From the NCBI GenBank assembly GCA_004022145.1, contig RCNU01000002.1: a stretch of DNA of 64,000 bases. One strand, written 5' to 3'. Both the position numbers and the translations under genes were made by a program. How positions within the stretch are numbered: position 1 is the first letter of the stretch; each line of letters begins with the position of its first letter. Shown here piece by piece: positions 54,036 through 60,729 of this stretch. The notes beneath the pieces were generated by a model. That model saw only the letters and a program-made list of their open reading frames with translations, searched no databases and was not told the origin of the DNA. Origin of the DNA: Paecilomyces variotii (Eukaryota).

Positions 54036-55381
54036 GGTGTCTGGGTCGTAAGTATTCTTGGCAGCGGTAAGGGGATTGAAGAAACTAAATCAGGATTGAC
54101 CTGTGGTTGTAAGTATTCCTAGCAGTATTGAGTGAGAGAAAAGAAAAAAAAAACAGAAGAAATTAGGCCAGGATTGACAGGCCCGTCTTCCACTTATATA
54201 CCATTTCAGAAGGCCCTGGCGCTTGCAATTTGGACCAAAGCCGTCCAATAGGCCAGAACCTGTGCATGCACAAGAGAAGATTTAGCTTTCAGGGGTCACC
54301 AAGCGTTGCAGCGTATTGGAGGTTTTGCTACGCTTCCTTCAGCGTGCGGAGAAGTAGCAACAGCTGTCTAGGGTTTAGTTTGTCGGATGAGTATGGTAGT
54401 AGTCCTATCACCATCCTAAGAATGCGACACATGATAACAGAGAAATGATGGAGTGGCGTGTAGACACACATATCGAGTTGTCATTGCAGTGCCAATACTT
54501 ACTGACAGCCAATTATAAAGGCAGACTGCTGCTACAGCCTTGTCTTACAACAGAGAATAGCAAGGGCTCTGAATCAATAGATAGGCAGCTTGGCCGCTTG
54601 GGACCCAATCTATCGCTGATAAACCACATAGGTTTTTAGCCTTGATGTGTTTCGGGCGAATCCAGCCGGCTTCTTGATAATTATAGCAAAAGATCCAAGA
54701 AGCCCTTCTGATGAGCTGCTGACGAGTGCCTTGCCCCTTCACTGCAAAGTTTGAAACTAGGTGGCCGCGACAGCGCTTTGAAGCAGCCCGGAGAAACTGC
54801 AAATACCATACCATCATAAGTGACAAAGTCTGTACTGTCACAAGGGTCGTAGTGCAGAGGAGGAGCTGGTTAGGTATGTCTGGTTGGAACAGAGAGGTCA
54901 ATGTCAATCGCATGGAAAGAATGGAAGAACAACACAGGAGAATGAACAAAACCGCCTGAGGCACAAAATAAGATATAATAAATGAGTATATGCTCTTGGC
55001 AGGAAAGTGAACAGAGCTTGCGTTTGATGGCTTCGACTGTTGCTGTAATAATAATGTTGTTGTCAAGTAATTAAGTACGGTCTAGGGCGGTGGATCGGGA
55101 CACCAGGCTCTCACCCCGCCTGCCCCTCCACGCTGTAGATTGACATTCATTCTCTGGCCTCATCCCGCTAGACTCTACTGTTCAGTATAGATTTCCTGAC
55201 ATTTACCTTGCAGTGTGTATACATATATTTACTTCGTTTCTCCCTTGTCTTTTTGTCCCCATTCCCTATTTCTTTATCTATATATTCTGCTAGAGAGAGA
55301 TTTTGCAGACTGAGAGATCATTTCGATCTATGAGACAATAACGCAGCATTGAACTATCTCACGACACCAAAGACACCAGAT

Positions 55382-56509
55382 ATGCCCGGAATCCCCGTCA
55401 CGATTATCACCGGCTTCCTCGGATCCGGAAAGACCACCATCCTCCTGAACCTGATACCCCAACTCCCGCCAAGCTACAAGCTTGCCCTCCTAAAAAACGA
55501 ATTCGGTGACGTCGCCATCGACTCCCAACTTGCCTCAACACAATCCATCTCCGGCGTACGCGAACTCCTAAACGGCTGCATCTGCTGCAATCTTGTTGGA
55601 CAACTGAGCGATGCGCTCAACCAGCTCCGGGATGAAGTGCAGCCGGATCGGATCGTGATCGAGACGAGCGGTAGCGCATTCCCCGCCACGTTGGCAATGG
55701 AAGTGAACCGACTCTCGAGGGAGCAAGGGGGAACTTTCGTGCTCGATGGGGTTATCAGTGTGATCGATGTAGAGAACTGGCAGGGATATGATGATACATC
55801 GTATACGGCGAAGCTGCAGGCCAAGTATACGGATTTGATCATCTTCAATAAGTGGGAGAACGTGCCGGAGCAGCGGTTCGATATCTGTCTGGATCGACTG
55901 GGAGATTTGGAACTGCAGACACCATGGGTGAAGTCCGATAAAGGGAAAGTGGATAAGGATCTTCTACTGGGCATTGATGGAGCTTTGCTTGCGAAAGATC
56001 CGAACATTGACCCAGAACATCTGGTGGATGGACATGATCATGACCATGACCACGGCAAGAATGGACACCAGTCCGAAGTCGAAGTGCTCACCGTCAGCCT
56101 CAAGTCGACGACCTCATCGTCCGACCGACCGACCGTCAACCTCACCTCTCTCGAGACGTTCCTCCTTGCTGCCCCTAAAGATGAAGTGTATCGAATCAAG
56201 GGTGTCATCCGATGCTCCACCACAAATCCGCCAGCAGACTCATCGGGTGAGAAGAAGGAACCGACTGCTACCTCCCCCGAGTCTAGCGGAACTCAATACT
56301 ACCTCTTGAACTGGGCCTTCGGGCGATGGACATTCACTCCATCTTCAGGGCTCGCAGATAATGTAGACCCCTCGACTGTTGCTCGCATCACGGTGATCCT
56401 CGCGCGGTATGAGTCCGCCAAGTGGAAGAAGAAGCTCGAAGATGGCGGACTGGTCGAAGTCGACGGCGATGCTGCCATTGGACAGTTAACAGTCGAAAGG
56501 ATAATCTAA
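55382..56509 (+). CDS. CobW/COG0523 (G3E) metallochaperone GTPase
   Basis: Walker A GFLGSGKT, NEFGD, GCICC metal motif, IVIETSG, NKW, His-rich HDHDHDH linker and YRIKG in the CobW_C region. Confidence 0.92.
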   Translation: MPGIPVTIITGFLGSGKTTILLNLIPQLPPSYKLALLKNEFGDVAIDSQLASTQSISGVRELLNGCICCNLVGQLSDALNQLRDEVQPDRIVIETSGSAFPATLAMEVNRLSREQGGTFVLDGVISVIDVENWQGYDDTSYTAKLQAKYTDLIIFNKWENVPEQRFDICLDRLGDLELQTPWVKSDKGKVDKDLLLGIDGALLAKDPNIDPEHLVDGHDHDHDHGKNGHQSEVEVLTVSLKSTTSSSDRPTVNLTSLETFLLAAPKDEVYRIKGVIRCSTTNPPADSSGEKKEPTATSPESSGTQYYLLNWAFGRWTFTPSSGLADNVDPSTVARITVILARYESAKWKKKLEDGGLVEVDGDAAIGQLTVERII

Positions 56510-56983: not shown

Positions 56984-58423
56984 TTAGTAATTGAGCAGGG
57001 CAGAGGCGCCGTTCTCACTGGAGATGTAGATAACTTCGTGGTTATCGGGAAACCCGTTGAAGCGGGTGGCACTACATCTAGTGTAGGCACCCATGTTCTC
57101 AAAGTAAAGCCAGTCTCCAACGTCCAGGAGACCGGGCAGAGTGATGCGCTCCGAGATGATGTCAATGCCATCGCAAGTCGGGCCCCAGATGGAGTAATCG
57201 ATGCCCTTTTGCTCAGGAACGCTAGATTCGGACGAGCCCGGAGTGGATGGAACGGAAGAGTCCATGCATGTCAGGATCTGGGCGACAGGGTGCTGGTGGT
57301 CAAAGATGATGTTGGAGAAGTTGCCATAGACACCATCATTGAGGTACAGCATGTACGCATCCCGGGACGGGTCCAGCGGATCGGGCACGTCGCGACGAGC
57401 AATGACATTCGCGGCCAGGGTAAATGCGCTCGCGACATAGTAACGACCGGGTTCCGCGATGATACGGATGTTCGGTGGAAAAAGGTTGTCCAGTGCTTCA
57501 CCAAGAACACCTGCAAATTGTTCAAAGGTGTCCTCACAGAAGCCACCACCGACGTCGAGCGTGTGGAGCTCGTGGCCCAATTCCGCAGCTTGGTCGAACA
57601 CGGCACGAGCATCCCGGACGGCCTTGAGGAATGCGTTCGGGTCTTCGGCTCCAGAGCCAACGTGGAAGCTCACACCAACAACCTTTAGCTCCAGCTCGCG
57701 GGCAAGCTCCAGAAGAGGGCGGGCAATGTCCAAAGAGGCGCCAAATTTCATGCTGAGACGACAAAGACTAGTCGAATCGTCCGTCAAGATACGCAGGTAC
57801 AGTTCTGCTTCGGGGAAATTGGCCTTAATCTTGTACAGTTCATCGGCATTGTCAAAAGTCATCTGCTTGACCCCCATCTGGGCCGCGTAGCGGAGGTAGG
57901 ACTTGGTCTTGCAGGGCTGGGCATAGATGATGCGGCTGGGGTCGATACCAGTGTTCAGCGCGAGATCGATCTCAGCCTTGGATGCGCAGTCGAAACCATT
58001 TCCCAGCTGGGCCATGAGGCGAAGAATCTCCGGATCGGGGTTGCACTTGACCGCTGTGTATTGTTTCAAGTCAGTTATCCGCGTCACAATTTAACAGACT
58101 CAAGACTCAAGGCGAGACCTACCGTAAAAGGGCTTCACGCGACCCAAGTTCATCTTCCAGCGGAGATGCTGGCGGTAGATCTCGCCCATGTCCGCGACGT
58201 AGAACGCATCTTCCTCTCCCGCGCGACACTCGTCGACATCGATGCTCTGGACACGTTTCTTCAAGATCTCAAAGACTAGGTCCCTAGCAGCCAACTTGGC
58301 CTGATTCAATTCATGTGCGCCATGATTATGGTTGAGATTGCTCTCATGTATATTATTATTGTCGTGATACTGTTTAGTCACGTATACTTCAGGGGGCGCG
58401 AGGACTGAAGGTGCCATAACCAT
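56984..58423 (-). CDS. spe1: Ornithine decarboxylase, 456 aa, 2 coding exons
   Basis: PLP-lysine motif PFY/AVKCN across intron 58122-58054. FDCASKAE, GVSFHVGSG, LDVGGGF, AEPGRYY, WGPTCDGID and GAYT...FNGF. Start MVMAPSV at 58423. Confidence 0.96.
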
Positions 58424-58510
58424 GCGGCTGAATTCAGGCACGGAGCTCTTTTCGGCTAGAAAAAAGAGAGAGACGAAAGCGAATAGTCCTTTTCTTTACG
58501 CAAAAGCGCG

Positions 58511-58744
58511 TTAGGGAGGACGGAACGTTTCGCAACCGAAGTTGACTGGACCTAGCCTCCTCGACCCTTCCTCCGAAAGAGGAAGAACCTTAAGAGTAGT
58601 CCTATGCGGCAGCTGGGTGGTTTGGGACGACGGGGACGCCGGCGGTTGGAAGTTCAGAGGCGCACCGAACGGAGACTCGTGGACGGTCAGCAAGAGGAGG
58701 TGGAATGTTGTTAAGCGTGTGTCGCAAACGCCTGGGGGAGACAA
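58511..58744 (-). promoter_or_regulatory. Non-AUG (UUG) upstream ORF of ODC (uCC-type), 77 codons ending FRPP*
   Basis: TCAAG-TTG-TCT start context and open frame to TAA at 58513-58511, 87 nt before the ODC ATG. The surrounding leader has no AUG. Confidence 0.75.
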
Positions 58745-58856
58745 CTTGACGAGAGAGCAGAGATGAGGCTACGAGAGCCGTGTTGGGATGGCGCCTTTGG
58801 GGATTCCAAAGGCTGACAGAGGGCAGGAAAAGGCGAAGATATAGCTTTCGCCGTCA

Positions 58857-59054
58857 CTGAAGCGCAGCCACGTCAGTTAGTCTGGCTCAGCTGGGGAGGA
58901 CACGGGGATGTTGGAGGTGGGTGCAGAGATTTCAGGATTTGAGAGCTCCGTGAATTTAGGGCAAAGGGCACGGCGTTTGAGACGGGGATCTAAGTACCGA
59001 GGCTGGTGGAAACCAGCCAGGCCGACTGCAGAAATGGGAAAATCGCGCACTCAC
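58857..59054 (-). other. Predicted 198-nt intron in the ODC 5' leader
   Basis: Donor GTGAGT at 59054, branch CTAAC at 58880-58876, acceptor CTTCAG ending at 58857. Confidence 0.55.
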
Positions 59055-60729
59055 CAAGATCACGAAAGTTGATGCGTCAATTGCTGGAGCAAATGGTGAG
59101 GTGAAAAGGTGGGAAGAGAGAAGAGCGAGTTGAAGTACTCTACGGACGAGGGCGGTGATGGCGGGGGTTCCAATTTTGTCACCGAAGCGGTCTGTGGGGG
59201 AACATGAGCGAAATTTGGGCAACGCGGGATTCGACTTGACTCTACTCTTCTCTACTTTACTCTACTCTACTCCCCGGCATCTAGCCTGGTCTCTTTTCTT
59301 CCTGTCGCCGGGATATTATTATTATTATGTATTCCCTATAGTCTGCCAACCCCTCTACTCAGCCACCCGGCAAAAAAGTTTTGACTTCAGTAATCTAGAA
59401 AGATCCGCCTTACACCAGATGGTGATTTCTCATGCGCCTTTTTCTCGGACCAACCGACGTATCCTAGATATGGACTGCGAGGCTTCTTTACAAAAGAGAC
59501 GCTCGATACGATAATGGGTCAATTTTTCCCTCAGTCAATCTATCTATTGTCTTTTCACTTGACGCTTTTCCCAGCCTATTTCAGCCGTGCTTCGCCACGC
59601 GCGCGGAAATACCGCTGTTGCATAAGATTCCTTAATAATATTGCTCTTAGTTCAATTAGACTACCTTTTTCATTGTAATTCAGCTATCACTATTCTGGTC
59701 TTGATACGAAAAGGAGATATTAATTCCTTTCAGCGCCTCTTGCCCCAACCTCTCTATATATATAACGCATACATCTTTCACCAGGCTAGCCCCCTACGCT
59801 AGCTAGAAGAAAGCCCAGTATTCTTCATCAAACTCACCATCCTCCTCGTTCAGAATCAAATCAAACATGTGACCCTTTCCGTAGTGCGAGTCCTCCGCCT
59901 CCGGAGTGTCCCATGACTGCCATCTTCTTTGTATTCACTCGATACCTTGTGCCGGCAGCCTCTTCCTGCAGCAATGAATTTGCATTCTTTCATCCAGATA
60001 AGGCAGTCTCGCGAATCAGTGATTGGTCTCTCAAAAACTGAGACCTGCGGACATAACTGATAGTTGTGTATAAAGACAAGGAATCCTGCTTTCGTTAAAT
60101 AAGATATCTGGAACCGACCCAAGAATGAGGCCGTCACCGTGTAGGTCCTAGGATGGGCACTTTCTACGATTAGAATACAGGACAGAAACTATGATTATTT
60201 ATGTGGTCGTTAGAGACTCCTTCAACTACTTTATACGTCAACATCCTGGTCTTCATTTCTATTCATTTGTGTCTGAAACTGTTCAAGGCCGTTCTGTGGT
60301 ATAATATGGAAAGCTTTTACGTTATGGGACTGTCCATGGGGAATCTGTTTTTAATTACATTGTACCATCATCCATTTTCATTTTGATCTTGGCTCCTTAC
60401 TGTCAGGGCCTTGGATGAGTGTATGAGGGTTTTGATATGGTGTTGCTCGAGATCCCGATACTCCCCACTATGCGGTGTGGGTAACTATATGGGCCAGTAC
60501 ATTATATACGAGCCACTAACAGACAGAAGCGGCCCGGAACAGAAAGACCATTAAAACGGCTCGCGTTTTCCCCCGATGACACACCTCTTCTTGTTTCCAC
60601 ATCTACCCGGAACGGGCGAGTCAACCCCGCGGATCTTGCCCTCAAGAGCCGCGGGATAGAAAAAGGACCCGTGTCGTTATTATTTCGAGCACGCGGAATT
60701 TCCGCAATAGTTGGTCTCCAATGCGGAGT

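Follow-up and report, generated by a model that had tools for sequence, protein, structure and literature searches.

A conserved non-AUG upstream coding region in the ODC leader of Paecilomyces variotii: a probable polyamine-feedback switch with additional constraint at the RNA level

Polyamine synthesis begins with ODC, its rate-limiting enzyme. Upstream of the ODC gene in Paecilomyces variotii, in the window analysed here (64,000 nt of contig RCNU01000002.1, assembly GCA_004022145.1), lies a long open frame that begins with TTG and ends with two proline codons directly before the stop. The first-pass annotation, made from the letters of the DNA alone, took this frame for a polyamine-sensing translational switch. 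Is it such a switch, or is it an accident of composition, an untranslated element or a uORF of some other kind?

Elements of the proposed type, non-AUG upstream conserved coding regions (uCCs), were described in the ODC leaders of Pezizomycotina by Ivanov et al. (2008), with Neurospora crassa and Aspergillus nidulans named among the hosts. According to the section of a review that treats them (PMC2811004), they reach about 100 codons in length, carry two adjacent prolines near the C-terminus, are conserved mostly at that end, and have putative AUU, UUG or ACG starts in good context. The same section reports that the leader region of N. crassa that contains the uCC represses ODC about 30-fold, that translation accounts for about 3-fold of this repression, a component which polyamine depletion relieves in part, and that this leader region is the sole test of its kind, direct polyamine-dependent repression being shown for no fungal uCC (PMC2811004). 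In the parts of the literature on which we draw, the stall mechanism itself is known for AZIN1 and yeast HOL1 only. In AZIN1 an AUU start, located about 30 codons before the stall motif, is combined with a PPW stall, a role for eIF5A and ribosome queuing (as summarised from Ivanov et al. 2018), and the HOL1 uORF of Saccharomyces cerevisiae is polyamine-dependent and has a Pro-Ser-stop end (as summarised from Vindu et al. 2021).

The uCC is thus a textbook-grade case of a non-AUG uORF that senses a small molecule, and its confirmation in P. variotii adds, in itself, little new biology. In our opinion the interest lies in the comparative set, which holds 27 distinct sequences from two classes and sharpens the uCC model in two ways. 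The N-terminal 44 codons appear to behave as a translated spacer of fixed length, which matches the prediction of ribosome queuing, and within the C-terminal block there is a portion on which RNA-level constraint is tighter than anywhere in ODC itself. The second observation provides a testable lead on how fungal uCCs work and, possibly, on the non-translational repression in Neurospora.

The upstream frame and its transcript

The uCC occupies positions 58511..58744 of the minus strand, as do, on the same strand, all the features described below unless stated otherwise. It consists of TTG, 76 further codons and TAA. The putative UUG initiation codon (58742..58744) has the context gtcAag UUG u, with A at -3, and an in-frame TAG eight codons 5' of it (58769..58771) bounds the frame. 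The encoded peptide ends with ...GPVNFGCETFRPP (FRPP), followed by the TAA at 58513-58511; the Pro-Pro-stop (CCT CCC TAA, 58511..58519) is the presumed stall site. A poorly conserved spacer of 87 nt (58424..58510) leads from the uCC stop to the ODC ATG at 58423. The first-pass annotation had described the TTG with its A at -3, the TAG upstream, the 77 sense codons ending with Pro-Pro-TAA and the distance of 87 nt in the same way, and the minus-strand sequence agrees with it to the base. Only one other in-frame near-cognate codon with a purine at -3 occurs in the window's uCC, namely an ACG five codons before the stop.

The ODC gene itself (56984..58423) is composed of a coding exon at 58423-58123, an intron of 69 nt at 58122-58054 and a second exon at 58053-56984. 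Its product carries the Pfam domains PF02784 (E 1.6e-76) and PF00278 (E 5.7e-26), and the part encoded by exon 2 is 100% identical over 355 aa to a 456-aa protein of Paecilomyces variotii, a fungus of the Eurotiales, Pezizomycotina. The domains and the protein match bear out the earlier identification of the downstream gene as ODC. Next to the 3' end of ODC, on the plus strand (55349-56509), an ORF encodes a product of 386 aa that has a GxxGxGKT nucleotide-binding motif and a stretch rich in His and Asp.

An open frame of this size is, as far as the window sequence alone is concerned, not beyond chance. The leader exon is C-rich, and when its 433 nt are shuffled with dinucleotide frequencies preserved, an open frame of at least 85 codons appears in 1279 of 2000 shuffles. 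The complete absence of ATG from the 779 nt 5' of the ODC ATG is modestly unusual, being matched by 22 of 2000 shuffles. The case for a uCC beyond chance is therefore made by comparative and RNA evidence, and not by the sequence of the window.

With regard to RNA, contigs from three runs, belonging to three studies, skip the 69-nt coding intron (58054-58122). Spliced contigs from two of the studies connect the ODC coding sequence without interruption to the uCC, its TTG included, one of them (X12) reaching 58809 and the other (X11) 58856. A transcription start downstream of 58744, which the first-pass annotation had named as fatal to its reading, is thus contradicted by these contigs. Two records of X11 carry the leader further: record 6 links 58856 with 59055, and the same joint recurs in record 7. 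The joint defines a 5' leader intron of 198 nt (58857..59054; GTGAGT...CTAAC...CAG) that lies 5' of the uCC; given that the short sides of the joint measure only 19 and 11 nt, the support for this intron is moderate. Of the first, non-coding leader exon (59055..59099) the 3' part alone is seen, from 59099 to 59055. It follows from the joint that the spliced leader is at least 478 nt long and that, for at least some transcripts, transcription starts upstream of 59099; the RNA contigs are unable to map the start itself. Another contig (X10 record 5) extends into the leader intron, and hence unspliced or alternative transcripts also exist.

One more contig from an RNA library, X2, was rejected as evidence of transcription. 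It is unspliced and differs from the window by 12 letters and 7 gaps over 1501 nt (58000-59500), and it was treated as DNA of another strain. Viewed as a strain variant, it has none of its 17 listed differences inside the uCC (58511-58744). Further upstream, in the region 59258-59500, the X11 and X12 contigs begin or end with loose ends near 59258 and 59313, a pattern suggestive of a transcript of its own 5' of the ODC leader.

Conservation among relatives and the evidence for translation

A metagenome scan with the ODC protein yielded 68 loci for comparison. In 31 of them tblastn with the 77-aa uCC peptide finds a match with E of 0.003 or better, always just 5' of ODC. A motif search combined with inspection of contig ends adds two further copies (L032 and L011), in which the C-terminus of the uCC is present and the end of the contig cuts off the rest. 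The peptide conservation across ODC leaders that the first-pass annotation expected is therefore found. Among the 46 loci with ODC identity of at least 59%, the uCC is present in 33, the upstream sequence is missing in 11, one is ambiguous (L049, where just four residues, AEPP-stop, stand at the extreme end) and one is degenerate (L017). With the 11 loci that lack upstream sequence and the ambiguous one left out, the uCC is present in 33 of 34 assessable loci, and at this comparative level the uCC reading of the ODC leader is supported.

The degenerate copy deserves a short description. In L017 (66% ODC identity, 1150-1370) the uCC has decayed through a 2-nt insertion that shifts the frame, a change of RPP to RPS and the loss of the stop, and in the invariant stretch that is discussed below AGG has become TGG. 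This may be a lineage-specific loss or an error in the contig. Among the 22 loci with ODC identity below 59%, a motif search found no match to this uCC motif. One of these, L038 (400-900; 53% ODC identity), has an upstream frame that ends with ...LEALSRPTRESPPFP-stop, and this frame may represent a divergent or an independent type of proline-rich uCC. A regular-expression match to the motif in L051 was dropped, its position being downstream of the ODC match.

How does the uCC appear in protein databases? A word-indexed search with the 77-aa peptide returned no match. An exhaustive HMMER search of 1.84 billion proteins returned 10 matches, every one of them at the C-terminus of the protein. Four of the 10 carry the annotation 'hypothetical protein'; they come from Aspergillus versicolor, A. 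varians, Emmonsia crescens and Thermomyces lanuginosus. The hypothetical proteins with the uCC tail (P0001, P0002, P0005 and P0008) begin at an upstream ATG, and these models are probably artefacts of gene prediction. For both Aspergillus species and for Thermomyces, the DNA record of the uCC protein and that of ODC are equally long, and in Thermomyces the locus tags of the two are adjacent. Genome annotation, then, may overlook the uCC or, as in the four named genomes, mis-call it as the tail of a hypothetical protein. The taxonomic range is broader than one class. L023 has an ODC with 94% identity to the one from a Hyaloscypha species (Helotiales, Leotiomycetes), so the uCC spans at least two classes, Eurotiomycetes and Leotiomycetes.

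The aligned sequences allow us to ask whether the frame is translated from a near-cognate codon. At the alignment position of the window's TTG, a near-cognate codon with A at -3 stands in 26 of the 28 rows (TTG in 11, ATT in 10, CTG in 4 and ATC in 1). L018 and L048, the remaining rows, carry instead an ACG that lies 85-86 codons from the stop and likewise has A at -3. The near-cognate start, the conservation of which had been expected, is thus kept at its aligned position in these 26 rows, in each of them with A at -3. An in-frame stop occurs 4-12 codons 5' of the aligned start in 14 of the 26 near-cognate rows, and the length of the uCC, counted from the aligned start, is 75-83 codons. At the other end of the frame, RPP-stop is found in 27 of 27 distinct sequences. 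The stop codon is TAA in 26 of the 27, and 22 of the 27 have C immediately after it; C in this position is reportedly the weakest termination context in eukaryotes.

All this has to be weighed against a reading in which the conserved sequence is an untranslated RNA or DNA element, be it a protein-binding site or a structure acting at the mRNA level, and the open frame is a by-product. Several patterns in the uCC speak against this. Indels within it are multiples of three in 27 of 27 cases, and the same holds for only 8 of 25 indels in the spacer and for 16 of 64 in the 200 nt that lie upstream (counts from 21 pairwise nucleotide alignments, the pairs of which are not independent). The uCC frame is open in 22 of 22 distinct sequences, whereas the other two frames contain stops in 17 and 19 of the 22. 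The RPP-stop is retained despite synonymous variation in its Arg and Pro codons. In the 33 codons of the C-terminal conserved block (58511..58612), which can be written as LPHRT.L.VLPL.EE.S...RPP plus stop, third codon positions vary most (23 of 33, against 13 of 33 first and 17 of 33 second positions), and the pN/pS of 0.48 in the uCC frame is lower than the 0.83 and 1.09 obtained after shifting the frame. The bias towards synonymous change that the first-pass annotation predicted is thus seen in this block. Pairwise identity is 0.62-0.97 in the uCC as a whole and 0.40-0.94 in the spacer.

The remaining, N-terminal 44 codons are different in this respect. Their pN/pS is 0.75 in frame and 0.99 and 0.67 out of frame, and there is no clear selection at the peptide level. 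Judging by these sequence patterns, a translated spacer of fixed length would make up the first part of the uCC and a conserved nascent peptide the second, and this is the picture that a stall-and-queue mechanism predicts.

An invariant stretch and a predicted stem-loop inside the uCC

Codon-level selection does not account for everything that is conserved. The 15-nt stretch AGCUGCCGCAUAGGA (58600..58614; read in the sense direction from 58614 to 58600) is invariant in 23 of 23 loci compared, synonymous sites included, and this holds across both fungal classes. ODC exon 2 was compared over the same loci (24 sequences, 1200 aligned nt); there, unchanged runs extend to 5 nt at most, and of 122 degenerate codons for invariant residues not one keeps a single codon. 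Within the stretch, an in-frame CUG (58612-58610), 33 codons before the stop, sits exactly where the conservation of the peptide begins. The stretch encodes a Leu-Pro pair as CUG-CCG, one of the 17 inhibitory codon pairs of S. cerevisiae, a classification that may not apply in these fungi. It also contains an out-of-frame UAG. An antizyme-like +1 frameshift by way of this UAG was considered and rejected: the frame that ends at it stays open over just 3-208 codons, lacks any ATG and shows no conservation. A search for a pairing partner of the 15-mer, from -700 to +500 around the uCC stop, found no other 7-9-mer present in at least 80% of the sequences.

Directly 3' of the invariant stretch, RNAalifold predicts a stem-loop of three tiers within the uCC (58548..58602), with an inner hairpin at 58563-58589. 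Of 486 cells in the alignment of its pairs, 96.3% are paired, as compared with 92.5 +/- 0.6 after column shuffling and 40-64% when the partners are slid. The same three-tier fold is obtained when each of the 27 distinct sequences is folded singly (27 of 27, -18.4 to -28.6 kcal/mol). In all 27 the native stem-loop surpasses the average stability of 300 synonymous recodings, with a mean z of -1.9, and in 13 of the 27 no more than 5% of the recodings are as stable as the native sequence. The structure includes G-U pairs that are possible on the sense RNA only, and in three loci a U-to-C change, synonymous in a Pro codon, is paired with an A-to-G change that replaces Glu by Gly.

The prediction has to be read together with several results of the opposite tendency. 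Compared with dinucleotide shuffles, the stem-loop of the window is not significantly stable, with z of -0.71 locally and 0.07 for the whole leader. Pairs changed on both sides number three, a figure reached by 206 of 500 column shuffles, and the support from strict covariation is therefore weak. The register of the middle helix differs between clades. Besides, a pyrimidine-rich Leu-Pro-Leu stretch beside a purine-rich Glu-Glu-Gly stretch will tend to pair anyway. No Rfam family matches the region 58300-59300, and the lone match elsewhere is a sub-threshold one attributable to chance (10.8 bits against a cut-off of 50).

Taken together, the invariance at synonymous sites and the conserved stem-loop imply that a part of the conservation is at the RNA level. 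This inflates the apparent conservation of the peptide, and it could point to a different or an additional mechanism. Indeed the untranslated element introduced above draws its main strength from here: an invariant run of 15 nt with synonymous sites included, against at most 5 nt in ODC exon 2, and a conserved stem-loop with sense-only G-U pairs. It may further appeal to the N. crassa leader, the 30-fold repression of which is, according to the review section, mostly not translational (PMC2811004). However, the stem-loop is no more stable than dinucleotide shuffles of the window, and the in-frame indels, the open frame, the variable third positions and the retained RPP-stop described in the preceding section all argue for translation. 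We therefore regard a purely untranslated element, with the frame as its by-product, as very improbable.

A second reading leaves the frame translated and moves its start. The functional initiation codon could be the invariant in-frame CUG at 58612-58610, assisted by the stem-loop, with the UUG 77 codons before the stop being secondary or serving to feed the queue. The coincidence of the CUG with the first conserved residue of the peptide and its invariant surroundings, synonymous sites included, fit this idea well. The middle helix of the stem-loop begins about 13 nt after the CUG, and a hairpin about 14 nt downstream is reportedly favourable to weak start codons. The distance of the CUG from the Pro-Pro-stop is, moreover, similar to that between the AUU of AZIN1 and its stall motif, which is given as about 30 codons. 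The context of the CUG, on the other hand, is poor: of 27 distinct sequences, 25 have C at -3 and two have G. If initiation took place here, there would be no need for the frame 5' of the CUG to stay open in all 22 sequences, to keep a total length of 75-83 codons and to accept indels in multiples of three only, nor for 26 of 28 rows to have a near-cognate codon with A at -3 at the position of the UUG. In our opinion it is unlikely that the CUG is the functional start, and we retain the UUG as the putative initiation codon of the uCC.

What the RNA-level constraint does can be stated in tentative terms only. That the last third of the fungal ODC uCC is an RNA element as well as a peptide-coding stretch is a possibility we take seriously, though we would stop short of calling it probable. 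The invariant stretch and the stem-loop could form a second, structure-assisted site of initiation or pausing; they could be a roadblock, stabilised by polyamines, that tunes the queue; or they could be responsible for the non-translational part, about 10-fold, of the repression by the N. crassa leader. The invariance at the nucleotide level and the stem-loop are not mentioned in the texts consulted here, among them the section of PMC2811004 on which we rely; as far as these sources go, the RNA-level invariance of the uCC may be new.

Proposed mechanism and comparison with known systems

The sequence comparison and the RNA contigs establish the anatomy of the locus, the conservation of the frame and of its near-cognate start, and the presence of the uCC on a spliced mRNA. 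By analogy, and by analogy only, initiation at the UUG, a stall, a role for eIF5A and a response to polyamines may be added. On this basis we consider it likely that the P. variotii copy of the Pezizomycotina ODC uCC acts as a polyamine-feedback switch, and it would work as follows. On a long leader free of AUG, most scanning ribosomes would bypass the UUG, a weak start codon in a good context, and would start at the ODC AUG. The minority that start at the UUG would translate 77 codons, of which the first 44 or so would need only to stay open and fixed in length, while the last 33 would provide the conserved nascent peptide, the Arg-Pro-Pro of which abuts UAA-C. High polyamine levels would slow eIF5A-dependent release or peptide-bond formation at the Pro-Pro-stop; ribosomes following the stalled one would queue back towards the UUG, and initiation there would rise. 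Fewer ribosomes would then reach the ODC AUG, and the result would be negative feedback on polyamine synthesis. Since Pro-Pro lies directly at the stop codon, a stall of the termination type is to be expected, and by comparison with the known cases a stall at termination, as in HOL1, seems more likely than one at an elongation step, as at the PPW of AZIN1.

The same frame could be translated and lower ODC translation, or trigger decay of the mRNA, as a constitutive repressor that does not sense polyamines at all. Any translated uORF of 77 codons followed by a spacer of 87 nt would cut downstream initiation, and a simple repressor would explain this much. It would leave aside the combination of a Pro-Pro-stop end with a near-cognate start, features which, in the accounts available to us, confer polyamine dependence in AZIN1 and HOL1, as well as the position of the uCC on the first enzyme of the polyamine pathway. 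The translational repression by the N. crassa leader is, moreover, reported in the review section to be partly relieved when polyamines are depleted (PMC2811004). Constitutive repression of this kind appears to us highly unlikely, and the polyamine-feedback switch remains our preferred reading.

How does the proposed switch compare with the systems already described? It resembles most closely the ODC uCCs of Pezizomycotina. The domains of the product and the continuous spliced contigs place the P. variotii uCC in the 5' leader of an ODC mRNA, and the protein identity and lineage place its host in the same subphylum, and in the same order as A. nidulans. The region is free of AUG and contains a conserved in-frame near-cognate codon in good context; the length of the frame is within the range of tens to about 100 codons known for the family; adjacent prolines stand at its very end in the window and in the 27 distinct sequences; and conservation is concentrated C-terminally, with an N-terminal part that is open and weakly constrained. 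Every sequence-level defining feature that we tested is thus present, and for this reason we assign the uCC to the Pezizomycotina ODC uCC family. No tested feature sets it apart from the features listed in the review section (PMC2811004), in which P. variotii is not among the species named. The family has been known since 2008, and the P. variotii member alone is new.

The likeness to AZIN1 is one of design. In both cases a non-AUG uORF with Pro-Pro near its end precedes the main frame of an mRNA of the ODC family, and the logic would be expected to be the same, namely leaky scanning at low polyamines and a stall with a queue at high polyamines. The animal and fungal elements are thought to have independent origins, in the sources cited here, and no sequence similarity between them is claimed. 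They also differ in detail: the start codon is UUG in the P. variotii uCC and AUU in AZIN1; the distance from start to stall is 77 codons in the former, whereas it is about 30 in the latter; and Pro-Pro is followed by the stop in P. variotii and by Trp in AZIN1.

In the last of these features the P. variotii uCC is closer to HOL1. The HOL1 uORF is short and is initiated at AUG. Both elements belong to fungal mRNAs of the polyamine pathway and carry a conserved motif with proline directly at the stop, and a stall at release would accordingly be expected in both. HOL1 regulates a transporter and its uORF ends with PS-stop, whereas the uCC of P. variotii precedes ODC and ends with PP-stop.
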